DNA of 64,000 nucleotides. Origin: an uncultured Anaerolineaceae bacterium. GTDB lineage: Bacteria; Chloroflexota; Limnocylindria; Limnocylindrales; CSP1-4. The notes under the pieces were generated by a model, which ran no database searches, had not been told where the DNA came from, and was given only the letters and a program-made list of their open reading frames with translations. Made by a program: the position numbers and the translations under genes. Below, in pieces: positions 3,741 through 35,768 of this stretch; positions within the stretch are counted from its first letter, which is position 1, and every line of letters begins with the position of its first letter. Location: NCBI GenBank assembly GCA_964579825.1, contig CAZOHT010000008.1, positions 33,613-97,612 on the forward strand, read 5' to 3'.

Positions 3741-3948
3741 ATTTGACTGGCTCGACTGATCGTGCCCAATTGCGAGTTTTGAGAGCCGCTGCCACACGTC
3801 AGAACGCTCTGCGAGTTAGTTGTATGAGCAACGAAAGTCAGCCGCGGATCGGCCCATCGACCAGGCATTCGCATCCGCGCGCGCTCTTGTGACCGTTAAC
3901 TCGATGTAAAGCGATATGCGTCGCGGTGGAGCGCGGCAGTGGCCAGCG

Positions 3949-10500: not shown

Positions 10501-13500
10501 TAGTCGGGCGTGGCCTCGAGCACCGGGTTGATCGTGTGGGTCAGCTGGCCGCGGTCGTCGTAGGTGTAGAAGGTCCGGTACAGGTCGTCGTTGGTGTTGG
10601 CCGAGTCGACCCGGCTGGCGTACAACTGGTCGGCACTCTGGCTCCAGGCGAGCTGCCCGCCGAGCAGCGGGTTGACGTAGTTGTCGACCTTGGCGCCAGC
10701 CCGGCTGCCCTGGCGGCTGACGACCGGATCGGCCGACGGCGTGCGGTAGGCGGTCGTTCGATTGACCCGCGACAGGCCGTCGAACTCGTGCTCCGTGCGC
10801 TTCGTGGCGGCGATCCCAGCGCCATCGGTCGGCCAGTTGCCGCTCGTCAGGCAATTGCCCGACGTGCAGCCCACCGGCACGTAGTCGATGAACGTCCGCC
10901 CGTCGGCGATCAGGTCGGTATGGATCGCCGCCCCGGCGGCGATCGCTGGGCTGTCCTGCCACAGCGCCCTCGTCCCGAGCGGGTTCGTACCGCGGTCCCA
11001 GGCCAGGATCCGGATGAGGTCGGCGCCACTGGCCCCGTTGTGGCTCTTGTCGGTGATCTTCATCGGCGCCCCGCTCGACCAGTCGACAGTCAAGCGGTAG
11101 TCGTCCGGGCCGTTCGTGCTGGTGAGGTCCCAGCGCGGATCGCTGACGGTCGTCAGCCGGTGGTTGGCGTCGTACACGAATCCCGTGCAGCCCGACGGCG
11201 TCCCCGGCGTCGACCCGCAGACGGCCTCGCGCCGAGCCGGCTTCACCTGGACGAGGTCGCCCGAGGTGACCTTGAATGTCGTCGCCCGCCCGGTGATCGG
11301 GCTGCCCGGCGTCCCGAGCTTCTCGGTCAGCGTGGTCGAGCCGGCTGCCCGACTGATATCGATCCGTCGGGTGTACGAACCCCCGTCGGAGGGTCCGTGG
11401 ATCCCGGTCAACGTGTACGAGCGCTGGCTGTTCACGCTGGCCGTGTCGTACGTGTAATCGAGCGTGACGGTGTTCGCGTCGCGATCCTTGATGCTGGTCA
11501 GGAGCCCATCGCGGTTGAACGCGTGGACCGACCGGTCGGCGTAGGTGGCCAGGAAGTCGGCCGAGCCGGCGACGGATGCGGCCGGCAGGCTGCGGTAGGT
11601 GAGGTTGTCGAACAGGGCGAACGTGCCATCGACCGCGGACAGCACGTAGCCCGTCCAGCGCACGTCGTCGCCGACCGGGCCGTTGGGCGGCGGGGTCCCC
11701 GACGTCCCGAGCGGGTTGTCGTTGTAGAAGGACAGGATCTGACGGGCGTCCTCGAGCAGATTGCGCGTGACGTGCGACCAGGTGACCGGGACCTCGGCAC
11801 TGACCTGGATCGGGTTGACCGCGTCCGATGGTGGCGTGGACCCCGCGTAGTAGGTGATCGAGCCTGTGGCATAGCCGCCGGCGCCATCCGAGTCGAGGCG
11901 CAGGTCCTTGAGATCGAACCGGATCGCGACCGATTGGCCGCCGACCTTGCGCCAGTCCCAGGCGACGAACGGGTTGGCATACAGCCCACCCGATGACGTA
12001 AGCCAGCAGGACGTGGTCGTGTTGCAGGTCGGCGAGCCGGCGAGGTTGGCCGGCGTGACCTTGAGACTGTTCGACGACCCCGGTGCGCCCTCGGCGTAGC
12101 TCGAGGCCTTGGCCGGGTTGACCGAGAACGTCGGGAAGGTCGGCTCGGCCAGGACCGTCGAGGCACTCGGGCTGAAGTACATGCCGTCGAGGTAGGTCGA
12201 CCCAGAGCTCGACGGCCGGCTCTTGACGACGACACCGGTGACCTCGAACTGGTCGAACGTGCCGCCGGGAAGCAACGTGCGCACGTCGTCATACACGTTC
12301 CGCAGCGCGATCGTTCGCCAGGTGTCGGCCACCGTCCCGCCGTAGTCGACCTGGGCGAATCCGGTCGACCAGGTCGTGCCGACGGTGTACACGATCCAGG
12401 TATCGGGGTAGTCCGCGCTGTTCGTGGCGTTGTGGATCTTGAGGGCCACGCCGGTCCCGACGGCCGAAGTCGTCCGGATCGCGAACGAGAAGTAGCGATA
12501 CGTGTTGAGCGAGATGGTCGGCGTGTAGGCGGACAGGGAGATGTCGACGTCCGCGTTGACGCGCACGACGGACGGACCCGACTTGTCCGGGATGGTCTGG
12601 CTCGCGGCTGTGTACAACTTGCCGGTCAGCGTCGTCCCACCGCCGCCGTTCTCATCGAAGAACGTGATCCGCGGTCGCTCGACGAGGACCGGTGCCCCGG
12701 CGATCTGCCCCTGGCCGTCGGTGTTCAGGAAGCTGCGGGCACCCGACGCATCCTGGTACGTGTAGGCACCTGACTGGTCGGCTGCCGATGTGTCGGTGAA
12801 GTGCTCGTCCCAGTTGGTCGACCAGCCACACGCCTCGAGCATCCCGACGTACTTGGTCGGCGCGCCCGTCGATGGACAGTCGAGGACGGCGGTCGCGCTG
12901 TCGTAGTTGTAGGCGACGCCCATCGCCACCAGATCGCTGAAGCCGATCCCGCCGGCACCGGTGTAGTGCAGGTTGCGGGTCGCGAGGTCGATGCCGAGCG
13001 AGCCGCCGTCGCCGGTCGTCGTGGACTTCAGGTCGTTGCCCGGGGCGCCCGAACCGACCGTGACGCTGAACTCGTCGCGCTCGACCGACGACGAGCCGGT
13101 CCAGCGGGTGTTGTCGCTGGACAGGACCTTCTTGTCGCGACTGTTGTAGGCCGACGGCTTGGCCCAGTCCGACGCGTACAGCCGCGTCCCGCTCGATCCG
13201 CCGAAGCGATGGATGAGATCGAGCCGCAGGCTGTACGTGCCCGGCACCGAGGGCGGCGTGATGGCCAGCGACATGATCGGCGTCGGGTTGGCGCCGCCGA
13301 TCGCCGACGGGACGTCGGCCGCGAAGTCGGCCTGGCCGGACGCCGCGGTCTTGCCCTTCTGGTCGAGGAAGCGATAGCCGACCTGGTAGCAGTCGGCGTC
13401 GCCTGCGCTCGTGCAGCGGTCGAACGCGAAGCCCGACACGTTGTTGGTCAGGGTGATCGGCAACACGGTGGCGACGCCGGCGGTCATCGAGCTCGGGGCG

Positions 13501-15479
13501 TAGTTGGCGCCGAGCTTTGCGTCGAAGTCGATGGCGACCTTGGGCACCTCGTAGGTGATGGTGAGCTTGGGTCGGTTCGACAGGGTGCCATTGGTGGAGG
13601 TGTAGAAGTCGGTCTCCCAGAAGCCAGCACCCTCAGAGCTCATCTTGAGTTCGAACCCGAGGTTGGCCTTCCAGTCGACGCCACGTCGGGTGTAGTGGGC
13701 ACGGACGGCGTTGGTCACATCGAAGTCGACCGTGCAGTCGGTCGCGCCGGTCGAGCAGGTCAGGACGTTCGGGCTGTCGTAGCCGGTCAGGACCTTGCCG
13801 TTGACATCGTTCCAGGTCGAGGTGTTGCCCCAGCCGACCTTGAGCGGGCGGGCCATGAGGTAGCGGTTGGCGCCGTAGCGGTTGATGTCCTCGCGCAGAC
13901 TGAGCGTGGCGCTCGTGACCACCGATGCCGTCGTGCCCGACGGGAAGAGCGATGGTGGCGGGAAGTACAGGTATGAGCGCAGCATCCCCCACGCGGCATC
14001 GGGGCTGCCGATGTTGTCGTCGCCCATGCGCAGGGTCGACGGGGAGGTCGGATACGTCGTCGGGTTGCCCTGGCCGGCGTACGTCTCGATGTAGTACAAC
14101 GTGGAGCCATTGACGGTGCAGCCCGATCCGCCGACCACGATGCACGCGGTCGGATCGAGCGTGACCGGGTAGATCGCGTCGGTGAGCCAGGCCTCATCGA
14201 GCGTGTAGGTCAGCGCGGTCTCGCCGCCATCGAGCGCCTCGACCGAGACGACGACCGCCGACTCCGGCGCCGGCATGTACAGGCCGTCGATGAGGACCGG
14301 CGCGCTGATGCGACCGACCTCGACCATGACGTCGCGGCCGTCCTCGGTCTGCGGCGCCTGGAGCAGGATCGTCCGTCCATCGCGATCGAGGGTCACCGTC
14401 AGCCCGGGTGCCTCGATCACGAAGGTGAACCGGTGACTGCCACCGGCGGCATCGAGCACGGCACCGAACTCGAATCCGGTGTCGACCGCCTTGACCGTGA
14501 TCCGGTCGAGACCGCTCGGGCCCTCCACGACGACCGTGCCTTCGGGCAGCGGCTGGGCATCCGGCTTGACGATCGGGCCGGTCGGTACCTCGGGTGTCGG
14601 TGTCGGCTCAGCGGTCGGCGAGGGTGTCGGTGCGGACGATGGCGACGGCGACGGGTTTGGATCGGGGCTCGGGCTGGTTGAGGGGCTGGGGCTGGCGCCG
14701 GGAATCGGGTCCGGGCTGGATCCGGCGCTCGGCGAAGGAGAAAGGCTCGGCGACGCGGATGGACTGGCCGCCGCCCCGACCTCGGCGTCGGGGCTGGTCA
14801 CCGGAGCGGCGGTGGCCGTCGGCGAAGGCGCCGGCGATGCGGGCGTGTCCGGCTGGACGACGGGCTCCGTGGGCAGTCCGAAGATCGTCTTCCCATCGGA
14901 CACGGTCGCTTGACCGTAGCCCGGGACACGGAGGTGGAGGATCCCGCTGCCGCCGGACATCTCGACGAGACCGTCGTTGGCGTCCTTAGTCGACACGGTC
15001 ACCTGGCGGTCGTTGCTCGCGACCTTGAAGCTGTCGTCGCCCGCGGGCACGAGGCTCAGGTCGATCGCCTGCCAGACCCCGCCCGGGTCCAGGAAGTTGA
15101 GTCGACCCGCCGATGCGTCCAGGGTGAACGAACCGTCCTTGTTGGCGGTCTGGGTGGTGTGCTCGGAACGCGCGGAGATGACCTCGGTGTCTTCGGCCGG
15201 CGGGACGTACTTGACATCGCGCGGACGGATCCGGGTCCCGTCCGCCAGGACCTCGACCCCTGCCGCATCGGCGCTCGCGGCACCCGACAGGTCGATCGGG
15301 GCTGCCTCGGCCTCGACGGCGGTGCCCGGTGGGATGGCCTTGCCGGGGATCGGATCCGCTTGTCGTGGTCCGATGGCCGAGGCTGCGGCCGGAGCGACTG
15401 GAACCACGAGGAGGAGCTCAGCCAGAATCAGAGCCGGTAGCACGGCGGCGGCGCGGCCGGACCAGCGGGTCCCCCTCAT
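4551..15479 (-). CDS. Giant secreted RHS/YD-repeat polymorphic toxin (WapA/teneurin-like) with a Pro/Ser-rich linker, two CBM_4_9-like domains, a LamG-like domain and an AHH-family HNH nuclease C-terminal toxin
   Basis: Signal peptide MRGTRWSGRAAAVLPALILAELLLVVPVAPAAASA. Long PS-rich low-complexity stretch. Two NPGFEDG...W...YVDDI(A/T)(L/V) modules (CBM_4_9-like). LamG-like IDEVAVYKVALDRSQMANLY. Dozens of YDxxGR repeats. RHS core terminus GNPASLIDPTGH. C-terminus AQAHHIVEV...NGVYLDRGFH...Y...L resembles AHH. Confidence 0.85.
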   Translation of the reverse strand: MRGTRWSGRAAAVLPALILAELLLVVPVAPAAASAIGPRQADPIPGKAIPPGTAVEAEAAPIDLSGAASADAAGVEVLADGTRIRPRDVKYVPPAEDTEVISARSEHTTQTANKDGSFTLDASAGRLNFLDPGGVWQAIDLSLVPAGDDSFKVASNDRQVTVSTKDANDGLVEMSGGSGILHLRVPGYGQATVSDGKTIFGLPTEPVVQPDTPASPAPSPTATAAPVTSPDAEVGAAASPSASPSLSPSPSAGSSPDPIPGASPSPSTSPSPDPNPSPSPSSAPTPSPTAEPTPTPEVPTGPIVKPDAQPLPEGTVVVEGPSGLDRITVKAVDTGFEFGAVLDAAGGSHRFTFVIEAPGLTVTLDRDGRTILLQAPQTEDGRDVMVEVGRISAPVLIDGLYMPAPESAVVVSVEALDGGETALTYTLDEAWLTDAIYPVTLDPTACIVVGGSGCTVNGSTLYYIETYAGQGNPTTYPTSPSTLRMGDDNIGSPDAAWGMLRSYLYFPPPSLFPSGTTASVVTSATLSLREDINRYGANRYLMARPLKVGWGNTSTWNDVNGKVLTGYDSPNVLTCSTGATDCTVDFDVTNAVRAHYTRRGVDWKANLGFELKMSSEGAGFWETDFYTSTNGTLSNRPKLTITYEVPKVAIDFDAKLGANYAPSSMTAGVATVLPITLTNNVSGFAFDRCTSAGDADCYQVGYRFLDQKGKTAASGQADFAADVPSAIGGANPTPIMSLAITPPSVPGTYSLRLDLIHRFGGSSGTRLYASDWAKPSAYNSRDKKVLSSDNTRWTGSSSVERDEFSVTVGSGAPGNDLKSTTTGDGGSLGIDLATRNLHYTGAGGIGFSDLVAMGVAYNYDSATAVLDCPSTGAPTKYVGMLEACGWSTNWDEHFTDTSAADQSGAYTYQDASGARSFLNTDGQGQIAGAPVLVERPRITFFDENGGGGTTLTGKLYTAASQTIPDKSGPSVVRVNADVDISLSAYTPTISLNTYRYFSFAIRTTSAVGTGVALKIHNATNSADYPDTWIVYTVGTTWSTGFAQVDYGGTVADTWRTIALRNVYDDVRTLLPGGTFDQFEVTGVVVKSRPSSSGSTYLDGMYFSPSASTVLAEPTFPTFSVNPAKASSYAEGAPGSSNSLKVTPANLAGSPTCNTTTSCWLTSSGGLYANPFVAWDWRKVGGQSVAIRFDLKDLRLDSDGAGGYATGSITYYAGSTPPSDAVNPIQVSAEVPVTWSHVTRNLLEDARQILSFYNDNPLGTSGTPPPNGPVGDDVRWTGYVLSAVDGTFALFDNLTYRSLPAASVAGSADFLATYADRSVHAFNRDGLLTSIKDRDANTVTLDYTYDTASVNSQRSYTLTGIHGPSDGGSYTRRIDISRAAGSTTLTEKLGTPGSPITGRATTFKVTSGDLVQVKPARREAVCGSTPGTPSGCTGFVYDANHRLTTVSDPRWDLTSTNGPDDYRLTVDWSSGAPMKITDKSHNGASGADLIRILAWDRGTNPLGTRALWQDSPAIAAGAAIHTDLIADGRTFIDYVPVGCTSGNCLTSGNWPTDGAGIAATKRTEHEFDGLSRVNRTTAYRTPSADPVVSRQGSRAGAKVDNYVNPLLGGQLAWSQSADQLYASRVDSANTNDDLYRTFYTYDDRGQLTHTINPVLEATPDYPRAVESATKNWNGTTNTDILAYYRLEESSGTALDANTPGGGVVGTHTAVGQATSSNALTPSSASVGATYTAASNSVTKVGTFGSVTGSFSAVAWVKPASNGTSLAILGSRYGTAAGTDHSFDLKLYVDPTTKVRAILADIGNGSAWLRPSFKAPYDWQIGRWIQVGLSVDDAADTVAIYVDGVLISSGPFTTAGTPLVVDNTRKLQIGTNGRDSVTPEWFNGSIDEVAVYKVALDRSQMANLYASARSIAVVDQATSYDSLGHPVQTTDQFLANPGFEDGIASGWRSTSATFETTTVHAGGLGSIKLAGSGTTIQERTLVPGQTFRLQGWNLVSGAGTARYTASYWKRSSNNWVAFGGMGVDYSETSWTSHAWDLPIPMDSDGRVRVKIENSNAGGSVYVDDIALFTTFAQMTYGGTGLIETTTTLSPAGGGGVVVNNPVYASSAVNPAIFATSVIVNDVGTVTDATSEDLTTTTTYDAWGRPLVTTDPDGVTSTDHYKAAGQGNGAMTDRDTVTDGAGNATTTTYDLVGNALTVQLPLGPPTTTRYDALNHPIDVTTPDTIKTTYQYDLVGQRIAVIANDVPGVPTVLDDVITSYEYDAFGRVIKTTGDDGGIEAVSESTYDLLGNVLTSTVWPGAGGTGTPRVTTSDFASANGLSRAVPTGVKLPVTSTTGHACPSGSGTCNSVSVLDLNGRTVATRDAYDNLTVQRLDLAGRAVQAIVNYVDGTGGAAEPESDLVTTTTYGLTGLVTSVTDPAARTTTTAYDAVGRPNRVTDIASGRYAKTVYRPSGRVDRVSDARTTDGALVWTKSVYDAAGRVTKTLAHYDTSGEAQISAENFEDGSATDWSSSGDFVSAGSTLTAQLGVTSPTPASGEGRLKIDTGSAANAGAVWALSGTYQSSDTYKATAWVYAPIGTTINAYLGTNTDSDTSTSIAGTGTWQALTVTWTPATNQTVAYLAYKRVGSASSVSVYLDDITVWNASAAAQNALGPDTNIPTETVYDANSRIIRSIVIGGAPGDASLVTATGYDAMGRVTSVTVNDVAGGGTTGAVNLTSTTEYDPLGRVEDAFDATGTHTTYGYDRLGRTVATTANYDDGTSSGPTGADDLRSTFAYDALGELTAYCPATAVVVDSCNPTQTVTTGNDYKSAWHYTYDAMGRMATQVAPVNVTATALDTTVWAYETGGRLASVTDQSPTLFPTIGRHVDMAYDDVGRVTSSIVYAGSGTGSPKQTTTTAYAVDGSPTQTAWNGTNDGLDSHTLDFTYTGEGWLNEIKVGGTTMTDYDYVDGLVTSRVDTNPASTGTTYATGFSYDWAQQVKAVTAGSIYATSADFTYRFDGLIASRTFPNGETLTFAYDTARRPTTITKANGNTFSQTYDRDSNVLTEARSLTGPTGDNGTNTNTLTYDALGRLTGESGLASSRSYQYDRDGNRTRKVEGGTTTVDYFYDRTDQLTKQKINGGADITFAYDRYGNMTTSRDSAGTATTYAYDTASHLTSITAGAQSSTFKFDALGRNRERTVNGVVEKYAYVGTSEVTSVITGTTTRISAVTEDGSRVATKDGSTSAFLIPDLHGNVAAMEQAAAVTIANAIRYDAYGQTMGTPYTGTGSVKLDTKYQGRLDISPSTTPLYDMSARFYSPGIGAFTQLDSYAGSVQNPATMNRFLYALGNPASLIDPTGHYAEGQICNLGPEDCGAINWVPRSDGGGGGASGLRQPSKSQTSRTKDNDSSPTTVTPPLIKMVAGVWVGPSGAPFTQGDLDTVYTSCLVLRDEAACDAWRAGMDRIRQADQQFCEVNPEACQLQAEQRTAALVFGLELIVLAAATLDGIPGDEAAVGAGLVAPAGARLAAISQELANLSTPAGPAAGGFFGRSAALSREMLNRALLAELGPGAAKPVNAQAHHIVEVTRPAAAASRAVLERFGIDGDSALNGVYLDRGFHLTDTTRAVYTLEVSNLLQRANSRDEVIATLQFVRASLLAAQAAGTEWP

Positions 15480-16069
15480 CCGTCTTCCCCAAGCCGTCGA
15501 TCAGGCCGACAGCCTCCTCCTGGGTCACTCGACGATCAGTGGGGCGATCGCCCGATGTCGACCCATGACGCTCGCCCGCGCGCGGCGAGTGCTGTCGCGG
15601 ACTTTCGCCCGACCAACGGAGGCGTGTCAATAGGACTTATCCACAACTTTGGTCGACCATGACGGACATGGCAATTCGTGGATCGTCGCGGCGTTAGCGA
15701 CCGGCCCTATTTGATTGCCAAGCAGAGAGCCACCATGCCTTTCTCACGCGTTCGTGCGATTGGGCCTCCTCGACGTGCGAACCGCGTGGTACCACATGGT
15801 CGAGGCAAGGAATGAGCCGACCGTCCTGCGATGGACCTGAGTCGCCAGCTTGCGGGGCTGGCCGACGAACCACGTCCGAAGGGATCCCAAGGCGGCGTCC
15901 GCTCGGCCAGCGGCTCGCCGGCCTGACCCCCGAGCGCACTCACGGCGCCTCGACCAGCGTCAACCGTCTGGGCACCGAGCGCGTTGCTTACGCAATCTTG
16001 CTCCGGGGCTACGCGTCCAGCCTATGCTGGAGCTGTCCAGAGAGCGTAAACAGGGATGGGAGGCAGTCG

Positions 16070-16777
16070 TTGGACGCGGACGAGATCAAGGAGAAGCTCG
16101 CGGGCGCCGGCTACTCGCCAAACGGACCCACCAGACTCGCTAATGATCTCGGCGATCAGGTTCGGATCAAGGGCGTCGTCGTGAATGCGTACGACAACGG
16201 CACCGTTCAGGTGCAGGGTGTTCCCGAGCTGGCCGTGCAGGTCCGTGAGCTTCTCGGCGTATTGGATGGCGGTGGCAGACAACGGACCGCTCGCGGCCAA
16301 CCTGCTGCAGCGGCTGCCACCAACCGCGACGTCTTCGTCGTCTATGGGCACGACATTGGAGCGCGGACTCAGCTTGAAGCGATGCTGCGCCGTTGGAACC
16401 TTGAACCTCTAATCCTTGAGCAACTCCCGTCGGAGGGGACCACGCTTATCGAGAAGCTGGAGAAGTACGCCAGGGATGACGTTCGCTTTGGGGTTGTCCT
16501 AGCCACTCCCGACGACGTTGGAAATGCGGTAGGCAAGGACGACGAGCGCAAGTCCCGCGCGCGACAGAACGTCGTTCTTGAACTCGGTCTGCTACTGGCG
16601 AAGCTCGGTCGAGCACGGGTCGCGATCCTACTCAAGGATCAGGCGATGATGGAGCGACCGTCGGACCTCCAAGGGCTGATCTACTACGCCTTCACCGATG
16701 ATGTCGACGAGGTGAAGCTGCAGTTGGCCAAAGAGATGCACAAGCAAGGCATCGCCATCGACCTTGGCCGCGTGTAG
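16070..16777 (+). CDS. TIR-like domain protein (PF10137-type predicted nucleotide-binding TIR-like, as in CBASS/Pycsar-type effectors) with a ~60-aa N-terminal domain of unknown function. This is copy A of an inverted pair.
   Basis: GGGAGG-6 nt-TTG start at 16070 (the track ORF from 15812 carries a non-homologous extension). RDVFVVYGHD...LEPLILEQ...TLIEKLE...RFGVVLATPDDVG...RARQNVVLELGLLLAKLGRARVAILLKD...ERPSDLQGL matches my memory of the PF10137 consensus. 93.6% aa identity to 34701..35408. Confidence 0.55.
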   Translation: MDADEIKEKLAGAGYSPNGPTRLANDLGDQVRIKGVVVNAYDNGTVQVQGVPELAVQVRELLGVLDGGGRQRTARGQPAAAAATNRDVFVVYGHDIGARTQLEAMLRRWNLEPLILEQLPSEGTTLIEKLEKYARDDVRFGVVLATPDDVGNAVGKDDERKSRARQNVVLELGLLLAKLGRARVAILLKDQAMMERPSDLQGLIYYAFTDDVDEVKLQLAKEMHKQGIAIDLGRV

Positions 16778-17002
16778 GGCGCTACGAGCAACTGTTCTTG
16801 AACAGAATAGGCTTGCCTTGCGGGCCGAAGACCCTGTCGCGGAGTTAGCGCAGCGCTTGGCTCGTCTCAAAGGACCACAACCTGCCGTTGTCTGTTCCGA
16901 CCCCCAGCACGACCCCCTCTTGGGGAACGAAGTCCTTTCGTCGTCCGTTGAGTAGTCGAACGGCGGACTGCAATCCGCCTCGAAGAGCCATACATCGCTC
17001 AG

Positions 17003-18229
17003 TCAATCGGTCCCAGCCAACCCGACGAGCCACTCCGCACGAGCCAGAAGTTCGTCGAAGGTTACGATTTCCGGCTCGACCACACTTCGGCGAAACAACT
17101 CGAAGGAACGGATCTTCTCCACGTTCGGGCCTCCCCCCTCTCCGAGTAACTCTCGGAGCATGCCGATCAGCAGGTACGAGCGAGGTCGCATCAGGAACGT
17201 AACCTCGGTCGGGATCTCCGAGCCGTCCTCGGCGCGCTCGCGGAGCGCCTCGCCGATGTCTTCGATGGCGCGTCGCACGGTGCCTTGGGACTGTGCTATG
17301 CCCGCCGCGATGTCGCCCGATGGTGCGTACACCCCCGGTCGATAGTGGGGGCCAAGGAGGTTCGTCCGGTGCGTCTTGAACTCGGCGAAGGTCATCCATC
17401 GAACGACCCCAGACGTCCGCATCACCGCGTCGGCCCGCTTGCCCTCGTGCGCCATCGACGACCCGCCGACCACCTGCTCGAGGCGCTCCCTGTCCCACGA
17501 CGAGTAGAGCTGAGCCCCTAGCCCTGCGCCGAGTATCCAGGGGTTCAATTCAAAGAACATCTGCCACACCTTTTCCGGACTCTTGCCGGGAGCAGCCACG
17601 ACCGCGGCGTCGAATGCGTCGTCGTCCGTCAAGAGTGTGCGGAACCACTCAACTTCGGTCCGCCGCCGTCGCATGGCGATGACGTCATGTGCGGCCGCAT
17701 CATCACTTATGAGCGCCCGGAAGAATTCGGGGTCTCGTTCGTAGATCTGGCCGATTGCCTCGGGCGTCGAGAACACGGCGCGCACGGTCGCATCGTCAAC
17801 GCGAGACGTGGCTCCGCCTTCCACCGGTATGTACTCGATGTTTCGCAGGAGCTCAACGACACGTGCTGCTTCGTCACCCTGGAATGTGGCTACGTTCTTG
17901 ATCCTTGGCCCCGTTGCGAGGTTGTCGACTCGCTGGATCATGATCTTCGTAACGTTGCCAGGTGACCCGCTCACCAGGAGCTTGAGCTGGACCCGGCCGG
18001 TGGGTGACTCGTGGACCAGCCACTGCGTCCCGTCTTCCTCAGTGGCCTCGATCACCGTGTCGCTGATGGGGTCGATGACCTTGTGAACGAAACGGGCCGG
18101 GACGCCGCCTGCCGATGGGTCTGGGAACGTCTTTGACAGGTACGTCTGGTCGGGCCTGCGGCCTTCGGCGTAGTCCACTTCGCCCGCTTGGCGATCATCC
18201 TTGAATGCGAACGGCTGCGGCATCGGCAC
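17003..18229 (-). CDS. Shedu-like (SduA, DUF4263) PD-(D/E)xK nuclease-domain protein
   Basis: 408 aa. C-terminal region KVWQMFFELNPWILG...GKRADAVMRT...RWMTFAEFKTHR resembles the DUF4263 motif (NPW.FG) with D...E.K restriction-endonuclease-like residues. The N-terminal domain is unrelated to anything I recognise, as in Shedu. Assigned from motif memory only. Confidence 0.4.
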   Translation of the reverse strand: MPMPQPFAFKDDRQAGEVDYAEGRRPDQTYLSKTFPDPSAGGVPARFVHKVIDPISDTVIEATEEDGTQWLVHESPTGRVQLKLLVSGSPGNVTKIMIQRVDNLATGPRIKNVATFQGDEAARVVELLRNIEYIPVEGGATSRVDDATVRAVFSTPEAIGQIYERDPEFFRALISDDAAAHDVIAMRRRRTEVEWFRTLLTDDDAFDAAVVAAPGKSPEKVWQMFFELNPWILGAGLGAQLYSSWDRERLEQVVGGSSMAHEGKRADAVMRTSGVVRWMTFAEFKTHRTNLLGPHYRPGVYAPSGDIAAGIAQSQGTVRRAIEDIGEALRERAEDGSEIPTEVTFLMRPRSYLLIGMLRELLGEGGGPNVEKIRSFELFRRSVVEPEIVTFDELLARAEWLVGLAGTD

Positions 18230-18707
18230 GGTCCCTACGGGTTGGATGAACGACTAGTATCGCCTACCGTGTTTGCATGCCCGTCAGACCTCGCCGCCGG
18301 CAGACGCACGCACATCGGCAACCTGCGGTCCCGGTGAGCAGACCAGTGCCACTTGCTCTCATGCTCCGTGCGGAGTATCTAAGAGTCCCCGAATCGCGAC
18401 GGGCTTCCCTTTCATGTGACTCCGACGCCGGTGTTGACACCATTGGCGGGCCCAAGGAGTCAGGGTGGCGTTCCCAGACGGTGGTGGTCGCCTTCTGGCC
18501 GCAGGTTCGAGACGTGTCGGCGAGGGAGATGGGCCCGGGCGACCGGGTTGTCGGTCGGCAATTGCACACGCATCAGGAAGGGCGAAGTGGTCCCACATCC
18601 GATGTTCTGGGCAGCCCTCGAGACAATGGAAGGCACGGACCCGAAATCTGTCGCGACGACGACCTGATGCTTGGCGTCACGAGCCACAACATGGGACTGT
18701 TGTCGGC

Positions 18708-19874
18708 ATGGAGCACCGACAATCGCTCTTCTCGGGAGATGTCGACGAACCCGGATTGAGCCTCAGGTTCACCCCTGGTGTGATGCCTGAGCTCGATCTG
18801 CAGCCCAATGTCCGCCACGTATACGTCGACATGAACCACTGGATCAATCTCTCGAAGGCACGACTCGGCCGGGCGGGAATGGAGGCCTACGAGCCAGTGC
18901 TCGAACGCCTTCGGGCCGGCGTAAAGGCAGGCGAACTCAGCATTCCTCTATCGGCGGCCCATTACGAGGAGATGACCGGCATCTCTGACCCCAAGCAACG
19001 TGCTGACATTGCGTTGACGATGGATCGACTGGCTCGATACAGCGTGATCGCTGACCGGGCGATCCTGATGCGCCATCAACTGCTGGTCGCGCTCGCCGCC
19101 TGGCGTGGTATGAAGTGGGCCGACCTGGAAAAGGATGTTCTGTGGGGACGTGGCTTTTCGTTTGCGTTCGGCCACGGACCCGGAGGGATGGCGGTCCGTG
19201 GTCAGGCGCTCGCTCGTGAACGCTTCCTGGCCCAGGGCCTGCCACTGGTCAAGCGGATCGAGCGGTTCGTGGGTGACAGGTGGACCTTCGCTGAACGAGG
19301 GCGGGGCGGCTCAGATGTACCAGCGCGTGCCCTGTGGGAGTCGAGCGAGTACGCCATGCTCCGAGGGCCCAAGGATGAGGACCTGGAAGCGCTACGCGAA
19401 GATGGGTATGCGCCGGAACGATGGTCGAAGGGCATCGACGAGATCACAGCAAGAGAGCAGGATCTCTCGCGGATCTTGAAGGAGGAGGGCAAGAAGCAGC
19501 TCGATGACATCGTGGCTGCGCGTCTTTGGTACTGGGAGCTGAACGCGCCGGCTGGCTGGGCCGCCGACCAGCTCGGGATCGATCCTGACGCGATCCTTGC
19601 GTCTGGAGCCGCCAACATGACCAAGCTCTTGCGAGGCATGCCGATGATGGCCGTCGAGTTCGCGCTCCGGCGAGCCAACTGGGCAAACGGTGACTACACC
19701 TGGTCGCGAAACGACATCTTCGACCTCGCCCATCTCGGCGTGGCCGTGCCCTATTGCGATATCACCTGGACCGAACAGCACGCCTCGAGCGTCCTCAACG
19801 CTGCTCACGTTCCCGACCGACTGGGAACCCGCGTGGTTGCCCGCCCGCAAGACCTCCTGACTGCTCTTGGCTGA
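18708..19874 (+). CDS. Hypothetical protein (389 aa; alternative start 18783)
   Basis: Long ORF with protein-like composition from MEHRQSLF / MPELDLQPNVRHVYVDMNHW onward. The track ORF start at 18465 has a junk-like N-terminus. No family recognised. Lies between the Shedu-like gene and an HTH gene. Confidence 0.4.
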   Translation: MEHRQSLFSGDVDEPGLSLRFTPGVMPELDLQPNVRHVYVDMNHWINLSKARLGRAGMEAYEPVLERLRAGVKAGELSIPLSAAHYEEMTGISDPKQRADIALTMDRLARYSVIADRAILMRHQLLVALAAWRGMKWADLEKDVLWGRGFSFAFGHGPGGMAVRGQALARERFLAQGLPLVKRIERFVGDRWTFAERGRGGSDVPARALWESSEYAMLRGPKDEDLEALREDGYAPERWSKGIDEITAREQDLSRILKEEGKKQLDDIVAARLWYWELNAPAGWAADQLGIDPDAILASGAANMTKLLRGMPMMAVEFALRRANWANGDYTWSRNDIFDLAHLGVAVPYCDITWTEQHASSVLNAAHVPDRLGTRVVARPQDLLTALG

Positions 19875-19957
19875 CCCCACCGGAGGCTTGGCACCAGGTC
19901 CGACCAGATGTGCATCCGGCATACGTCGGCACAGCCTAATCCCGCTTCGAGTTCGCC

Positions 19958-20150
19958 TTGGCCGACGACCTGTTGTCGTTGCGCGAGGCGGCGGCGCTCG
20001 CGGGTCTCAGCGCATCGCATCTCCGGCTCCTCGCACGGACCGGCAAGATCGACCACACGAGGGTCGGGAGCTACTGGGCGACCACAGAAGCCGCTGTCCG
20101 CGCATATCTCGCCGACGAGGCGCTACGGGCGAAGGATCCGTACAGGTGCC
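19958..20150 (+). CDS. Small HTH DNA-binding protein (excisionase/AlpA/MerR-like). The ORF runs on to 20359 with an Arg/Cys-rich, probably non-coding, tail.
   Basis: N-terminus MADDLLSLREAAALAGLSASHLRLLARTGKIDHTRVGSYWATTEAAVRAYLA is a classic excisionase-type HTH. 3' end uncertain. Confidence 0.35.
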
Positions 20151-20267
20151 GCAATGGGCATCGATGCCCCGCTCTTCTCTGCCGCATAGCGTGTCGTGCC
20201 AACTCGCCGGGTGCGAGCGCTGCCAGCCGGGCAAGGCGTCGTATCTCAGCCGGGATGTCGATCTTGC

Positions 20268-20586
20268 GGCCGGTGGGATGCCGACGGTCATGCTTGCCGC
20301 GATCGCGTTTCGCGGGATGTATCTGGCTCGCCGCCTCCGAGCGGGTGGGACGCACGTGATCGAAGTCTATCCGCGAGCGTCGTTTCGCAGCCTCGGGTGG
20401 GATGGGCGACCGGCGAGCATCGACGAAGGTTGGAGACTTATCGCTTCGCTGGTGACGGGGGTCGAGGTGGGCACCCGCGACGACCTGGACGCTGTGTGTG
20501 CGGCTCTCGTCGCGGCCCAGATGGCTCAGGGCCGTGCCCACGAGGAGCGCGGGTCCGACGGATCGATGTGGGTGGCCGTGCCGTAG
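20268..20586 (+). pseudogene. Possible gene fragment (C-terminal part resembles DUF429-like proteins). The reading frame appears disrupted upstream.
   Basis: MPTVMLAAIAFRGMYLARRLRAGGTHVIEVYPRASF...DDLDAVCAALVAAQMAQG looks protein-like. A MGIDAPL segment lies in another frame just upstream (ends 20189). No convincing full-length ORF. Confidence 0.2.
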
Positions 20587-20843
20587 CGCGTGGGCCGCGT
20601 CAGAAATAAGCAGGAAATAAGTGGCGCTCGCTATGGTCGCCCGGCTACCCGCCAGACCTCGGTGTCATCCGGGTCTTGAGGGGATTCGGGATAGCGGTCG
20701 AATCCGAGACAGATCCAAACGGAGGGCTGGTACGGTCACCGACGCCACTTGACCACAGGCCCAGCGATGGGTCGCGCGCGGTGTGAGAGCGGTGTCGGCG
20801 GTGCCCTATATGGCCTGCCCAAGCATCGTGGAGGGAGCATCTC

Positions 20844-23800
20844 GTGCATCGTGGTCGCGGCCGCTCGATGAATCGCGTCGCCTGCCTGATCGCCGTGGCG
20901 GCGATCGCCTCTGAGGCGATGCTCGCGAACGTGCCGATCGTCAGGGCGGCATCGCCGGAGCCGTCGGGTCAGGTCGAGACCGCTCCGTCGCCGTCGACCG
21001 AACCGACCTCGTCACCGGCGGCGACCCAGCCGGTTTCAACGCCATCGCTCAACGCGCCGGGTTCGCCGATCCCGTCCCTCAGCGCCGCTCCATCCATCGT
21101 GCCGCAGGCGACGCCTGTGCCAGTGCCGATGACTCCGGACCACGCCGACCCAAAGCCCGGAGCCACGGAGATCGTCGCCGAGCGGACCGACCGGTCGCAG
21201 ACGTACGACAACCACGACGGCACGCGGACGACCGAGTTCTACGTCGAACCGGTCTTCTACAAGCCCGAGGGGTCTGACACCTATCAGCCGATCGAACTCG
21301 GCTTCGATGCGACGAACCAGGACGGGCTTGAGGCGATCTCAAGCAAGGCCCCGATCACGATCGGCTTGGCCGAGTCCACCTCGACCGACAACTTCCTTCG
21401 ACTCAGCGATGGCGCACAGCAGATCGGATTTGCGATGCCGGCCGACCTTGCCAGAACCGCCGAACCGGTCAAACCAGCGATCGACGGTCGGGTTGCAGAC
21501 TTCAGGGACTTCTACCCAGGGATCGACCTCCGCGTCATCGCCAACGCCGATGGGGCGAAGTCGTTCTTCATCTGGCACTCCAACCCGGCCGACTCGACCC
21601 TTCGCTATGTCGTCGACGCCCCAGGCTTGACGCTTGTCGCCGAGCGGGATGGCTCCATCTCGTTGATGGGTGCGAACGAGAAGGTCGTCGCGTCGATCCC
21701 CCGACCCTATGCCGTGGACTCGACCGCGGATGAGCGCGCCGGCGGCGGTCGGTTCACCGACAAAGTCTCGCTCAACCTGGCTGAGGACGGCAGGACGATC
21801 ACGGTCGCGGTCGATCCCGATTGGCTGAAGACCGCCGTGTATCCGGTCTACGTGGATCCGTCCACGGGCTGGGTCGTCAACAGCGGGACCAACACCTACG
21901 GCGATGCCTTCACGGCGTCGAACTATCCGGGCACCAACTTTGGCAACTACCAGCGTCCCGACTCGCCCTACTACCACGAGCTGTGGAATGGACTCGATCC
22001 ATCCGGAACCTCGGGTACCAGCCTGACCTACTTGAAATGGAATCTGAGCGGGATCATGGACACGACGGTCGAGTCGGCGACCCTCGCCCTTGATCCCTAC
22101 CACCAGTACTACGACGCCCCGACGGTGCTGAACACCTACGTCCGCCGCGTCGAAGAGCTCTGGTATCAGAACTCCGTGACCTGGACCACGGCACCCGACT
22201 TCACGTACGACGACTCGAGCACCGCCGGCTGCGTCGAAGGCGCCTGGTGCTACTGGGATGTCGCCGCCATCGTCCAGAAGTGGACGAACTGGAGTTTCAC
22301 GAACTACGGATTCCAGATCGACAACGAGGGGCACGGGTCGACGTATTGGAAGCGCTTCGTGTCGTCGGAGGAGACGACGACCGGGATGGTCCCGCAACTC
22401 AAGGTCATCTACCACGTCCCGACCGTCACGGACCTGACCCCGCGGTTCACGGGAACGGTGGCCTGGTCCACGCCGAATGCACAGACCAAGTTCCAGGTCG
22501 AGGTCGCCACCGACGGGACCTTCACGACCCCGGTGGCCCTATCGGGTCAAGTCGCAAGCTCCGCGACCAGTTGGCGGATCCAGCCCAATCAGGTCACGCC
22601 GATGGTTGACGATGCCGTCTACTCGTATCGTGTCAGGATCTTTGATGGTTCCTGGACCACCTATGCCCAGGGCACCTTCACCTACGACGCGTACCTGCGT
22701 GGCGAGGAGACCTACTACGACAGCGTGCCGTTCGACCTCGGTGGCGGCCTCGGTCTCGAGGTCGGCGCCCAGAACGGCGAGGCTCGACTCCAGCGCGACC
22801 TGTTCAGCATCCCGTCCTATGGACCCGCGGGCGAACTGCGCCTGACCCACAGCTCGCTCGATCCGTCGGGTGCCGGCGCATTCGGGGTCGGCTGGTCGTC
22901 GAACCTCACCCAGTACCTGACCTTTGAGAACGGCCTCGTCGTGTGGCACCGCGCCGATGGGGGCCGGGTCGCCTTCTCGAACGCGACCGGCAGTTGGCTT
23001 GTCCAGGGTGGCCACTTCGAAACGCTCGTCCGTGGCACGAACGATGTCATCACGTTGAAGGATCAGACGAAGCTGACCTTCCAGAACTCGAGCGCTGGAC
23101 ACCTGCTCTCGATCACCAACCGCTTCGGCAAGGCACTCACCATCACTGGCTGGGGTACGTCAACCGTCACCGCGACCGACGCAGCCGGCCGCGCCACGAC
23201 CCTCGGCTTCACGGGCTCGCTCATCACCAGCGCGACCGACTCGGCCGGTCGTGCCTGGGGCTTCACCTACACCGGCACAAACCTCACGACCCTGACCGAT
23301 CCCGCAAGCAAGACCACGACCTTCGCCTATAGCGGCAGCAAGGTGACCACGATCACTCGTGCGCGGACCAAGGCGGCCGGCGGGACCGACTCGATCGTCT
23401 GGGCCATCGGTTACACCAGCGGCCTCGTGACCAGCGTCACCGACCCGATCGGTGCCGCGACCGGAGGCACGCCGGCGCACACCTTCACGACGACCGCATC
23501 TTCAACCGTCGCTGGTCCGCTGCGCACCTATTCCCCGGTCGTACGCAACACGACCACGTACACCCTCGATGGGTACGGGCGCTCCACCTCGATCCTCGAT
23601 CCGGGCGGCTACACGACCAAGCAGACCTTCTATCCCGATGGAACACTCAAGCGCATCGACCGTCCGGTCGCGCTTTCGCCGTCGGCCACCTGGGCTCGCA
23701 CCGACTACCTCTATACGGCCGGCAACCTTGTCCAGGAGACCGTGGGCCTCGATGCGACCGCGACCGGAGCACCGACCAGCACGATCGTCAACGTCATGTC

Positions 23801-32331: not shown

Positions 32332-32474
32332 GAAATCGCCTCCGTGACAGGAGCTACTCGTAGCTCGCGTCGTGGAGGCGTCAGATCGCTGCGCCTGCTC
32401 CCGCGCGGGGTTCGTCCGGACTTATGTCGCTGCCGCCGAACTCCCGAAAGTCTAGTACGCCTTGGCCGGCTCGG

Positions 32475-34700: not shown

Positions 34701-35408
34701 CTAGACGCGGCCAAGGTCGATGGCGATGCCCTGCTTGTGCATCTCCTTGGCCAATTGCAGCTTCACCTCATCAACGTCGTCCGTGAAGGCGTAGTAGATC
34801 AGGCCCTGGAGATCGGAGGGCCGTTCCATCTTCGCCTGGTCCTTGAGGAGGATCGCGACTCGCGCACGACCGAGTTTCGCCAATAGCAGCCCAAGTTCCA
34901 GGACCACGTTCTGTCGCGCTCGCGACTTCCGCTCGTCGTCCCTTCCGACGGCATTCCCAACGTCGTCAGGGGTGGCCAGGACGACCCCGAATCGAACGTC
35001 ATCCCTGGCGTACTTCTCCAACTTCTCGATGAGCGTCGTCCCCTCCGACGGCAGCTGCTCGAGGATCAGGGGCTCAAGGTTCCAGCGGCGCAGCATCGCC
35101 TCTAGTTGCGTGCGCGCTCCAATGTCGTGTCCGTACACGACGAAGACGTCCCGGTTGGTGGAGTCTGCGCCAGCAGGTTGCCCGCGCGCCGGTCGTGGTT
35201 TTCCACCGCCGTCTACTACGCCGAGAAGCTCGCGGACTCGCGCGGCGAGGTCGGGACTGCCTTGCACCTGAACTGTGCCGTTGTCATACGCATTGACGAC
35301 TGCGCCCTTGATCCTTACTTGATCGCCGAGATCGTTGGCGAGTCGGGTGGGTCCGTTTGGCACGTATCCGGCGCCCGCGAGCTTTTCCTTTATCTCGTCA
35401 GCGTCCAA
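34701..35408 (-). CDS. TIR-like domain protein (PF10137-type), copy B, inverted relative to copy A
   Basis: AGGAGG-6 nt-TTG start. 235 aa collinear with 16070..16777, with 15 substitutions concentrated in residues ~16-85. The TIR-like core is nearly identical. The 3' 45 nt differ at 2 synonymous positions. Confidence 0.55.
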   Translation of the reverse strand: MDADEIKEKLAGAGYVPNGPTRLANDLGDQVRIKGAVVNAYDNGTVQVQGSPDLAARVRELLGVVDGGGKPRPARGQPAGADSTNRDVFVVYGHDIGARTQLEAMLRRWNLEPLILEQLPSEGTTLIEKLEKYARDDVRFGVVLATPDDVGNAVGRDDERKSRARQNVVLELGLLLAKLGRARVAILLKDQAKMERPSDLQGLIYYAFTDDVDEVKLQLAKEMHKQGIAIDLGRV

Positions 35409-35768
35409 CCAATTCCTCCTAACCCCTCCAGTACGATTGATGACTCCAGCAAACACCCGGTGCTCCTGAGCGGATTTGGCTGGGGAGAACCGAGATCGAA
35501 CCTAGGAGCGACTGAAATGAGGAGGTCGCATAAGTGGCGGGGCCGCCCTGCGTCGGTTTTCGTTCGTCTGTAGTGTGACCAGTTGGCCCCGCCAAACGCC
35601 CTCACCGGGATACAACGCCACGAATTCCAGTGGATCCGCGACAGGTCCGGTCGAAGGGACGTACCTGGCGTACCTAGTTTCACCTCGCCGGTGTGACCTT
35701 CCTGCCCACTACTCCTTCGGCCGTTCGGAGTTGAGGCTCTCGCGGACGAGCGGGATCGAAGCGAAATG

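Follow-up and report, generated by a model that had tools for sequence, protein, structure and literature searches.

A Type 1A Shedu nuclease gene and a divergent, probably independent gene of a large uncharacterised family in a Chloroflexota defence island

The two adjacent genes described here are probably two unrelated single-gene units that stand back to back in an island of defence genes and mobile elements, flanked by two giant RHS toxin genes. We put the probability of this reading at roughly 0.7, an overall figure that combines four separate estimates, running from near certainty to a tentative proposal and worded below with the parts to which they belong. All positions refer to the window, i.e. 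the whole stretch of 64,000 nucleotides that was analysed. The useful result is the separation of both genes: the plus-strand gene leaves the Shedu story and is flagged on its own. The two genes, their domains and the region between them are as follows:

17003..18229, minus strand: sduA, Shedu immune nuclease, Type 1A (N3 N-terminal domain class); from Pfam, PADLOC, PDB, Foldseek and a classified homologue
17825..18229, minus strand: SduA N-terminal domain, approximately residues 1-135; from AF2 secondary structure, conserved columns and homologue class
17594-17794, minus strand: SduA helical linker, residues 146-212; from AF2 secondary structure
17018..17581, minus strand: SduA C-terminal DUF4263 PD-(D/E)xK nuclease domain, residues 217-404; from the alignment to B. 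cereus SduA
18230..18707, no strand: divergent intergenic region, 478 bp; from the sequence
18708..19874, plus strand: 388-aa protein of a large uncharacterised family, stands alone; no library match, homologue searches, AF2
18813..19055, plus strand: N-terminal half of the neighbour core, residues 36-116; from alignments A1 and A2 and model secondary structure
19056..19706, plus strand: neighbour insertion domain, mostly helical, residues 117-333 (~215 aa); from model and alignment
19707..19871, plus strand: C-terminal half of the neighbour core, residues 334-388; from alignments and model

Both open reading frames were found, divergent, where the first-pass annotation had placed them. The sduA frame (17003-18229, minus strand) encodes 408 aa from a GTG start, and the database copy has 406 aa from the ATG at 18223, which is likely the true start. 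The neighbour frame (18708-19874, plus strand) encodes 388 aa plus a stop codon instead of the 389 aa claimed previously, and the gap between the genes, estimated before at ~480 bp, measures 478 bp. We found neither sigma-70-type promoter nor terminator matches in this gap. An Rfam scan of 15000-21000 placed no family inside it; the sole match, narK, was sub-threshold and lies outside the gap at 16326-16391. The neighbour frame can be extended upstream in frame (18465-18707). The GC3 of this extension (0.51) is below its GC2 (0.69) and we therefore regard the extension as non-coding and the start at 18708 as reasonable; the gene body has a GC3 of 0.73. Some homologues of the neighbour also keep an N-terminal 'L-x-W/F-P/T' strand just after this start.

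The minus-strand gene had been read as a Shedu-like DUF4263 PD-(D/E)xK nuclease, and a profile search and a structural comparison had been proposed as checks. Both bear the reading out. The Pfam model SduA_C (DUF4263, PF14082) scored 82.6 bits (cut-off 27, E 4.4e-23) and matched residues 217-395 with profile positions 2-159 of 159. The peptides quoted from the protein (KVWQMFFELNPWILG, ADAVMRT and FAEFK) do occur in SduA, within this match. Twelve PADLOC SduA models matched as well, and the best of them, PDLC00394, runs through the whole protein (positions 3-383 of 392, E 3.9e-117). Among the PDB sequences, SduA entry 8ti8 was matched at E 5e-6 with a residue-level alignment. At E <= 1e-10 we counted 409 homologues; among the 120 listed, the alignment mostly extends over >= 94% of the protein, and several carry the NCBI name 'Shedu immune nuclease family protein'. 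The AF2 model is of moderate quality overall (pLDDT 75, pTM 0.52); in the nuclease domain, leaving aside the motif II loop and one other loop, the pLDDT is mostly 90-98. In the Foldseek comparison the model matched the solved Shedu structures of both B. cereus and E. coli. The top matches were 8ti8 and 8ti9 (8ti8_C: E 1.8e-8, probability 1.0, target-normalised TM 0.61; 8ti9: TM 0.68), and E. coli SduA 8ps5/8ps4 was also recovered (8ps5: E 3.9e-4, probability 1.0). We found no evidence against membership in the SduA family. Pfam, PADLOC, PDB entry 8ti8, Foldseek, the conservation of the catalytic motifs and the class of a homologue agree, and we consider it almost certain that the gene is a Type 1A Shedu.

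We assigned the motifs through the alignment to B. cereus SduA, with residues E204/D249/E264/K266/Q295 of Gu et al. as the reference. This gives E219 for motif I, D267 for motif II, E283/K285 for motif III and Q313 for motif IV, and none of the five varies among 47 homologues. The B. cereus B4264 Shedu (PDB 8ti8/8ti9; Gu et al.) and the window SduA have in common an N-terminal domain, a helical linker, a C-terminal DUF4263 PD-(D/E)xK domain, all motif I-IV residues and a flexible motif II loop, which is mobile in the B. cereus protein and predicted with low pLDDT here (residues 241-274). The two proteins are 17-20% identical in the Foldseek alignments. The window SduA differs in its longer linker and in its GGK motif, which has Ser as the third residue; a separate invariant G263-K264 precedes D267. 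The DNA-end-sensing E. coli SduA (PDB 8ps4/8ps5; Loeff et al.) belongs to the same nuclease family and is also a single-gene system, but its N-terminal clamp domain is different and, beyond the nuclease core, the two match weakly (TM 0.25-0.35). By analogy with these two enzymes, SduA would be a tetramer assembled through its DUF4263 PD-(D/E)xK domain and kept inactive by the N-terminal and linker domains until these recognise phage nucleic acid, e.g. free DNA ends or single-stranded DNA; the activated enzyme would then cut the invading DNA using E219, D267, E283, K285 and Q313. What the analysis shows is the family, the intactness of the catalytic motifs, the fold match and the domain layout. 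The oligomeric state, the trigger and the anti-phage activity of the window protein are what we infer from this mechanistic model, which was taken from bioRxiv 10.1101/2023.08.10.552793 and 10.1101/2023.08.10.552762.

The N-terminal ~200 aa of SduA had been described as unrelated to anything recognisable. This has to be revised, given the end-to-end PADLOC model, the hundreds of full-length homologues and a domain class, N3, that is already catalogued. In Table S3 of Gu et al., KAA9163210.1 is listed as '4263N3+DUF4263', and N3 stands under Type 1A (sPC4/Whirly class). This sequence shares a 90% cluster with homologue P0083, which is 51% identical to the window SduA over 95% of the window protein length (E 6.5e-119), and through this homologue the N-terminal domain is assigned, indirectly, to the Type 1A class. 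Columns Y30, S32, V51, G78 and Q81 of the domain are conserved in the 47 homologues. In the AF2 model the domain consists of four long beta-strands arranged as a sheet plus a helix, an arrangement compatible with an sPC4/Whirly-like fold. Foldseek returned no significant match for the domain alone; the best matches of the N-terminal part were insignificant, e.g. the MRP1/MRP2 entry 2gid (E 0.69), which we take to be Whirly-like. The Shedu gene as such is no novelty, being a further Type 1A member from a high-GC genome and of a type that PADLOC and the catalogue of Gu et al. already cover.

The 388-aa protein matched nothing in Pfam, NCBIfam, PADLOC, PHROG or the PDB sequences, and a PADLOC-DB v2 search with 40 diverse family members produced a single weak match in 1/40 (E 0.054). 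We detected 13 close homologues, and a profile search extended the family to 4,284 representative clusters at 50% identity. Members were seen in Actinomycetota, Acidobacteriota, Chloroflexota, Dormibacterota, Proteobacteria and Bacteroidota, and also on plasmids; no relatives were found among the IMG/VR viral contigs. Pfam, NCBIfam, PADLOC and PHROG have no model for this family of thousands of clusters, and a structural neighbour is likewise missing.

The first-pass annotation had offered two options for this gene, an accessory component of Shedu or an independent defence gene, and had proposed to check its co-occurrence with DUF4263 genes. Outside the window we observed no such co-occurrence: SduA lay within 10 kb of a homologue of the 388-aa protein at 0 of ~90 independent loci. 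A six-frame SduA HMM search over 97 loci (1.54 Mb) detected SduA only in the window locus and in three loci that had been fetched with SduA itself. The closest homologue of the 388-aa protein lies at a locus lacking SduA. Seen from the other side, the two closest SduA loci lack the 388-aa gene, and their flanking genes are unlike those of the window and unlike each other; on these flanks the window SduA has no obligatory partner and appears as a single-gene system. Nor did the genes around the homologues point to any other partner: 642 flanking genes fell into 548 clusters, the largest of which was a tyrosine integrase (14 loci), and no conserved partner gene emerged. These observations speak against the accessory option, and the 388-aa gene is very probably independent of SduA.

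One might still consider a two-gene Shedu variant, with the 388-aa protein as an accessory sensor or regulator of SduA in the manner of KELA with KELB. The two genes are adjacent and divergent, the shared 478-bp region could hold a common regulatory site, and a two-component precedent exists in the KELShedu system of E. coli, where a DUF4263 nuclease likewise has an adjoining second gene (PMC12577705). The co-occurrence data largely refute this arrangement, and the closest SduA homologues have different neighbours. The precedent itself also differs. KELA is small (12.6 kDa, ~110 aa) and sits in a bicistronic operon with KELB, separated by a 3-bp gap, whereas the window neighbour has 388 aa, lies 478 bp away on the opposite strand and does not accompany SduA elsewhere. 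KELB has only a short N-terminal beta-sheet, with which it binds KELA (PMC12577705), and in the window SduA an N-terminal domain and a linker, both of the single-gene Type 1A class, are already present. We consider the two-gene variant very improbable.

A looser partnership would have the 388-aa family act as a sensor or regulator that pairs with interchangeable effectors (SduA, SIR2, TIR, HEPN, PLD). Its closest relatives adjoin SduA (in the window), a 591-aa SIR2_2 gene in the same divergent layout and a 120-aa TIR_2 gene, more distant members adjoin HEPN_AbiV and PLD/DrmC-like genes, and clustering the neighbours by sequence is blind to a class of partners defined by function rather than by family. 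However, most immediate neighbours are not effector-like, and a neighbour on the same strand within 50 bp was seen in only 15/88 cases upstream and 9/85 downstream. SduA, SIR2 and TIR proteins of such sizes are known from stand-alone or otherwise complete systems, and next to integrases and in a Pf prophage the 388-aa gene is found with no effector-type gene adjoining it. Such modular pairing is unlikely, and independence of the two genes remains the preferred reading.

What an independent 388-aa gene might do was approached through the genes around its homologues. Homologues are accompanied by an AAA_15/Metallophos pair and an AAA_21 gene, by an integrase-bearing element, by DUF6119, by TIR_2, SLFN_AlbA_2 and NERD, and by HEPN_AbiV. 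On a Rhodococcus plasmid the homologue lies 24 bp after drmC of a DISARM operon, and one close homologue is divergent from a SIR2_2 gene. Immediate neighbours among the homologues also include DrmA/DrmD, an MmeI-type enzyme, NotI, KAP, PifA and PDC-S54/S65; many of the flanking genes have housekeeping functions (e.g. NMO, His_biosynth, SecDF). ORF6 of the Pf prophage, located between the repressor and excisionase genes, is a member of the family too (HMM E 2e-46). The Pf prophage paper places defence systems in the accessory genome flanking the core, and we infer that the position of ORF6 is accessory. As homologues adjoin integrases and DISARM, SIR2, TIR and HEPN genes and one resides in the Pf prophage, an independent defence or conflict role is suggested, to which we give even odds. 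It is more tentative, though possible, that the family is an overlooked and maybe new stand-alone anti-phage or anti-mobile-element effector, a single-gene system that is part of no known one. If the gene does act in defence, it would be an easy single-gene system and would fill an annotation gap in many genomes of soil Actinomycetota and Acidobacteriota; otherwise the locus would be no more than a routine defence island.

A rival reading is in terms of mobile DNA. The 388-aa protein may be a housekeeping, addiction or regulatory gene of mobile elements, such as a toxin-like stabilisation factor or an auxiliary gene of recombination or replication, that has no role in phage defence and is present here through the mosaic of mobile DNA. 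Integrase, at 14 loci, is the commonest neighbour, and homologues are found on plasmids and in the filamentous prophage by repressor, excisionase and Arc-like genes. In one member there is a weak, sub-threshold ribbon-helix-helix fusion at the N-terminus, and the window has integrase, terminase-like and methylase genes nearby. Against this, the position of the family with respect to integrases or replication genes is not fixed, no partner (e.g. an antitoxin) is conserved, and cargo of defence islands would be expected to turn up repeatedly near bona fide defence systems, as this family does. We regard the mobile-element role as possible, though not likely.

The AF2 model of the 388-aa protein reached a pLDDT of 88.3 and a pTM of 0.88, and Foldseek found no match below E 0.4 in PDB and BFVD. 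The model predicts an alpha/beta core that is split by the ~215-aa helical insertion, with the order beta1, two helices, beta2, two helices, beta3, insertion, helix, beta4, two short helices, beta5, helix. The first half of the core contains beta1 with the invariant D41 (motif YxDxNHW), beta2 followed by the invariant E88, the invariant R98 and beta3. Conserved in the insertion domain are G147, G220-P221, E250 and P312. The second half comprises N335, D336, the invariant D339, Y349-C350-D351, beta4, T355, E/D356 and beta5. D351 and T355 are near-invariant in the family, and the Pf prophage member does not keep them.

On this basis we tentatively propose a nuclease-like core. The split core would present a conserved acidic cluster (D41, E88, D336/D339, D351, E/D356) as in the metal-dependent nucleases of the PIN/FEN type, the helical insertion might serve as a regulatory or substrate-gating domain and the protein as a whole would work on its own as a defence or conflict effector. 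Its predicted secondary-structure elements follow one another as they do in PIN/FEN-like nucleases, and the acidic residues are placed alike: D41 after beta1, E88 after beta2, D336/D339 at the start of the helix before beta4, and D351 and E/D356 flanking beta4. FEN and Xrn enzymes have a large helical insertion after beta3. The resemblance is a guess from topology and motifs, and we do not claim family membership. A Pfam scan for PIN families found none in the full-length protein, in 40 full-length members or in 10 cores with the insertion removed. Aligning the spliced core with the PIN_3 alignment in hhalign gave a probability of 0.3%, equal to the reversed-sequence and unrelated controls, and the core profile recovered no PIN protein from all PDB sequences. 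FEN/Xrn-type structures did appear in Foldseek, at insignificant values (E 2-7, TM ~0.1).

That all PIN-directed sequence tests were negative leaves some room for another Rossmann-like phosphoryl-transfer or binding fold (HAD-like, Toprim-like) or for a non-enzymatic core, either of which is possible at rather low odds. A HAD-type core with a C2 cap would likewise agree with the strand order and with an insertion placed directly behind beta3, and D-x-N after beta1 and S82 after beta2 seem to resemble HAD motifs I and II. However, R98 precedes beta3, which is not the position of HAD motif III, and no HAD or Toprim family was matched in Pfam or PDB.

The surroundings of the two genes contain the following further features:

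16070..16777, plus strand: PDC-S35 candidate defence gene with a CAP12/Pycsar-effector-type TIR-like domain, left repeat arm; from Pfam and PADLOC
34701..35456, minus strand: inverted PDC-S35 paralogue, right repeat arm; from the repeat, PF10137/PDLC05006 matches and protein identity
19958..20230, plus strand: small HTH_17/excisionase-family DNA-binding ORF; Pfam HTH_17 E 4e-6, NCBIfam excisionase domain E 4e-5
20290-20586: DUF429 fragment after the HTH_17 ORF; from Pfam

The inverted repeat said to bound the segment is real, with arms of 765 nt at 16053-16817 and 34661-35425 that are 84% complementary. We rejected the arms as transposon ends: they are two diverged paralogous genes of the PDC-S35/CAP12 type with TIR-like domains, 91% identical in amino acids and 84% in nucleotides. 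Both match PF10137 and PDLC05006; the left gene, 235 aa in the public assembly, does so at E 3.5e-30 and E 6e-86, respectively. The flanking PDC-S35 gene has no cyclase partner, and thus this is not a CBASS or Pycsar operon. The HTH_17 ORF starts 84 bp downstream of the 388-aa gene and, by clustering of the flanking genes, is not conserved beside its homologues. The GC3 of the genes described here (0.72-0.77) is below that of the RHS genes (0.85-0.88), and for this reason we consider them compositionally foreign.

Two separate genes make up the finding: an ordinary Shedu gene on the minus strand (sduA) and an unrelated gene on the plus strand, which we refer to as the neighbour. Both are located inside a 5-kb gap flanked by two giant divergent RHS/YD-shell toxin genes. 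The features of the locus are as follows (window positions).

3949-4560, minus strand: Imm11-family ORF, 203 aa (E 2e-9), lying after the 3,642-aa RHS gene and overlapping it by 10 nt
4551-15479, minus strand: RHS/YD-shell giant, 3,642 aa; its match to an AHH nuclease is faint
16070-16777, plus strand: PDC-S35 / CAP12-type TIR-like gene, the first gene in the gap
17003-18229, minus strand: sduA, the second gene in the gap
18230-18707: spacer of 478 bp between sduA and the neighbour
18708-19874, plus strand: neighbour, 388 aa
from 19958, 3' of the neighbour: small HTH_17/excisionase-family ORF
20290-20586: truncated DUF429 fragment, its profile matched over about the C-terminal two-thirds only
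20844-28244, plus strand: second RHS/YD-shell gene (RHS2; DUF6531 and TEN_YD-shell), 2,466 aa
28245-28706, plus strand: 153-aa ORF starting at the base directly after the RHS2 stop, no family match
28977-34329: mobile-element genes, comprising a terminase-large-subunit-like gene (Terminase_6C, E 2.5e-7), HTH_31, an N6_N4 DNA methylase and a tyrosine integrase

The two central ORFs were recovered at the positions given by the first-pass annotation, in divergent orientation and with the peptide motifs it had quoted; the length of the second protein needed correction, from 389 to 388 aa. In the public copy of SduA the start is the ATG at 18223, two codons further in, for a length of 406 aa. The start of the neighbour at 18708 stands because the upstream in-frame extension of the ORF (18465-18707) shows a GC3 of 0.51, below its GC2 of 0.69, which is the codon-position GC of non-coding sequence. 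Scans of the 478-bp spacer, which are weak for high-GC organisms, yielded neither a sigma-70-type promoter nor a terminator, and no Rfam family was matched; the GC content of the window is about 65%.

Judged by their sequences, the RHS gene at 4551-15479 and the Imm11-family ORF at 3949-4560 form a predicted polymorphic toxin and immunity pair, and the ORF directly after RHS2 (28245-28706) is a candidate immunity gene. The HTH_17/excisionase ORF and the truncated DUF429 ORF overlap in different frames. The stretch between the neighbour and RHS2 that contains them (19958-20586) looks like gene debris.

The segment had been described as bounded by an inverted repeat, and this was borne out: the arms at 16053-16817 and 34661-35425 are 765 nt long and 84% complementary. 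They consist of two inward-facing paralogues of PDC-S35, a PADLOC phage-defence candidate class of the CAP12-Pycsar TIR-like type. This paralogue pair is the only long inverted repeat. The arms are not transposon ends, and no transposon-like inverted repeats were found around sduA and the neighbour. The paralogues are 91% identical as proteins and 84% identical as nucleotides, and the higher protein identity suggests that both copies are under selection. The 17.8 kb enclosed by the arms also hold RHS2 and the terminase-like, HTH, methylase and integrase genes. The cluster of these last four (28977-34329) also includes small unknown ORFs and may be what is left of a prophage, or else a satellite-like element. 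The GC3 was 0.72-0.77 in the sduA, neighbour and PDC-S35 genes compared to 0.85-0.88 in the RHS genes, and the lower values fit cargo acquired horizontally.

The minus-strand gene had been called Shedu-like, and rightly so. A profile search matched Pfam SduA_C at residues 217-395 with 82.6 bits (cut-off 27), and the best Foldseek matches of the AlphaFold model were to Shedu structures of B. cereus (E 1.8e-8, probability 1.0), with E. coli SduA next. The N-terminus, which had been reported as unlike anything recognised, is in fact covered: the PADLOC model PDLC00394 aligned residues 16-402 to model positions 3-383 of 392 (E 3.9e-117). As this match spans the N-terminal half, that half is no orphan but part of a known SduA subfamily. 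Among 5.8 billion proteins searched, 409 were homologues at E <= 1e-10; among the 120 homologues listed, most covered at least 94% of the protein at 46-65% identity, and NCBI gives several of them the name 'Shedu immune nuclease family protein' (Amycolatopsis, Nonomuraea, Leucobacter). SduA is thus already detectable with standard tools.

For B. cereus SduA, Gu et al. list the motif residues E204, D249, E264, K266 and Q295. By residue alignment to PDB 8ti8 and to this list, motifs I-IV of the window protein correspond to E219, D267, E283, K285 and Q313, all of which are invariant across an alignment of 47 homologues. The model has a pLDDT of 75 overall and of 90-98 over most of the nuclease domain, which a helical linker joins to an N-terminal domain rich in beta structure. 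Its motif II loop is of low confidence; the counterpart loop in B. cereus SduA is mobile. KAA9163210.1 of Amycolatopsis acidicola, catalogued as '4263N3+DUF4263' in Table S3 of Gu et al., shares a 90% cluster with P0083, a homologue 51% identical to the window SduA over 95% of its length. Through this catalogued homologue the window protein can be placed in N3, a domain family that Gu et al. assign to Type 1A; this is the sPC4/Whirly class, to which B. cereus Shedu also belongs. Foldseek matches for the N-terminal domain alone were insignificant and did not corroborate a Whirly-like fold. By analogy with two structural studies, SduA would tetramerise through its nuclease domains. It would be held autoinhibited by the N-terminal and linker domains, be switched on by recognising phage nucleic acid, for example DNA ends or single-stranded DNA, and in its active form cleave or nick DNA via the PD-(D/E)xK site.

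The neighbour had been proposed either as a Shedu accessory or as an independent defence gene. For the first possibility we built an HMM from 120 SduA homologues and ran it on the called ORFs and six-frame translations of 97 loci (1.54 Mb). The loci fetched for the neighbour comprised six metagenomic homologues, 80 species-representative genomes, two plasmids, the closest homologue and one phage. The HMM matched only the window locus and three loci originally fetched with SduA itself, so no SduA was found beside other homologues of the neighbour, including at the locus of its closest homologue. In the reciprocal check, the neighbour gene was not found in the closest SduA loci. The arrangement also differs from that of the two-component KELShedu, in which a partner of ~110 aa lies in the same operon, 3 bp apart (PMC12577705), whereas the 388-aa neighbour is divergent. 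On the HMM searches of these loci and the reciprocal check we rejected an accessory role: the neighbour is very probably no Shedu component and is unrelated to SduA.

We then considered the neighbour's own family. A word-indexed search gave 13 homologues, none of them with a Pfam domain, and when 1.84 billion cluster representatives were searched with a profile, 4,284 matched at E <= 1e-3, 698 of these at E <= 1e-30. All-against-all clustering of 642 genes lying no more than four positions from a homologue produced 548 sequence clusters. The largest was a tyrosine integrase (14 loci, at position +1 in 9 of them), and tandem paralogues of the family occurred at four loci out of about 90, L041 among them. 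Only integrases and tandem paralogues emerged, and we rejected a conserved partner gene. Upstream neighbours lay on the same strand within 50 bp in 15 of 88 cases and downstream neighbours in 9 of 85. Some family members carry N-terminal extensions. A single domain match came out of these, a weak, sub-threshold RHH/NikA-like one in P0193, and P0164 has a 430-aa extension without a Pfam match; P0141 is a further protein among the tandem-paralogue and N-terminal-extension cases.

Of the six metagenomic homologues, one has a radical-SAM cluster on one side and AAA_15/Metallophos and AAA_21 genes on the other; one lies within an integrase-bearing element; one is near DUF6119; one is followed by TIR_2, with SLFN_AlbA_2 and NERD close by; one has a Peptidase_M78 gene and a weak HIRAN-domain match in its vicinity; and one comes directly after a HEPN_AbiV gene. 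The closest homologue (61% identity) is divergent from a 591-aa SIR2_2 gene. On the Rhodococcus ruber plasmid NZ_CP129903.1 a family member (7992-8972 of the fetched locus) starts 24 bp past drmC, which closes a DISARM operon of methyltransferase, DrmA, DUF1998 and DrmC. At locus L011 the -1 gene is also DrmC/PLD-like, and DrmA and DrmD occur at +/-1 in other loci; adjacency to DISARM may be recurrent. Across the 80 genomes the genes at +/-1 include DrmA, DrmD, DrmC-like, MmeI-type IIG, NotI, KAP NTPase, PifA and PDC-S54/S65, and also housekeeping genes (NMO, His_biosynth, SecDF). Together with the GC3 in the window and the Pf prophage member described below, these contexts make a stand-alone role of the neighbour in defence or conflict plausible. 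Of the two earlier proposals, the independent defence gene is the plausible one and merits a direct test. A serious rival is that the neighbour is a mobile-element gene with a non-defence function.

A family member was also identified in the Pseudomonas filamentous prophage PfAC03 (OR801191.1). ORF6 (WPZ98946.1; 6016-6963 of the fetched locus, 315 aa, annotated 'hypothetical protein') matched the family HMM with E 2e-46 and lies between two Arc-like genes, between repressor and excisionase. In other Pf variants, retron, Gabija, Kiwa, Avs and comparable systems belong to an accessory genome that is described as lying on the flanks of the core (PMC11878078); counting the position of ORF6 as accessory is our own inference. 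A search of viral contigs with patterns specific to the actinobacterial subfamily found no relatives of the neighbour.

For the neighbour protein itself no match came from Pfam, NCBIfam, PADLOC or PHROGs, nor from Pfam, PADLOC or NCBIfam for 40 diverse family members. Searching PDB sequences, whether with the protein alone or with profiles, brought up no meaningful match. The AlphaFold model from 12 sequences reached a pLDDT of 88.3 and a pTM of 0.88, and Foldseek searches of the PDB and BFVD with it returned nothing below E 0.4. The predicted fold opens with a short N-terminal strand and runs through beta1, two helices, beta2, two helices and beta3 to a mostly helical insertion of ~215 aa, after which come a helix, beta4, a pair of short helices, beta5 and a last helix. 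Polar residues at the strand ends of the core are strictly or almost strictly conserved.

D41: in the motif YxDxNHW, after beta1
E88: after beta2
R98: conserved polar residue of the core
N335, D336, D339: start of the helix preceding beta4
D351, T355, E/D356: around beta4

In its topology and in how its acidic residues are spaced, the model is reminiscent of PIN/FEN-type metal-dependent nucleases. A helical insertion after beta3 is likewise a feature of FEN and Xrn enzymes, and several FEN/Xrn/PIN_53EXO structures were among the non-significant Foldseek matches in both libraries. Ten cores with the insertion spliced out had no match in Pfam, and the core profile found no PIN protein in the PDB. 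We also ran hhalign with the core, both forward and reversed, the insertion and the full-length protein against a PIN_3 alignment of 120 homologues of a Rhodococcus PIN protein; the core scored a probability of 0.3%, equal to the reversed and unrelated controls. D351 and T355 are not kept in the Pf prophage member. We keep a nuclease core as a low-confidence guess from predicted topology, set against negative sequence tests. We do not claim membership of any known family; the neighbour's family is large, unannotated and structurally unplaced.

Towards the start of the window ARAGORN called a tRNA-Gly(CCC) at 3666-3740. Its first 40 nt are canonical and its 3' end (…ggttccggccctaccttcatgc) is unpaired with the acceptor 5' arm. 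Neither an intact 3' half elsewhere in the window nor the far end of a tRNA-Gly-linked island was found. The tRNA gene may have been broken at the junction of an integrated island. Just downstream of it (region 3000-5000) the GC content falls from about 0.69 to 0.61.
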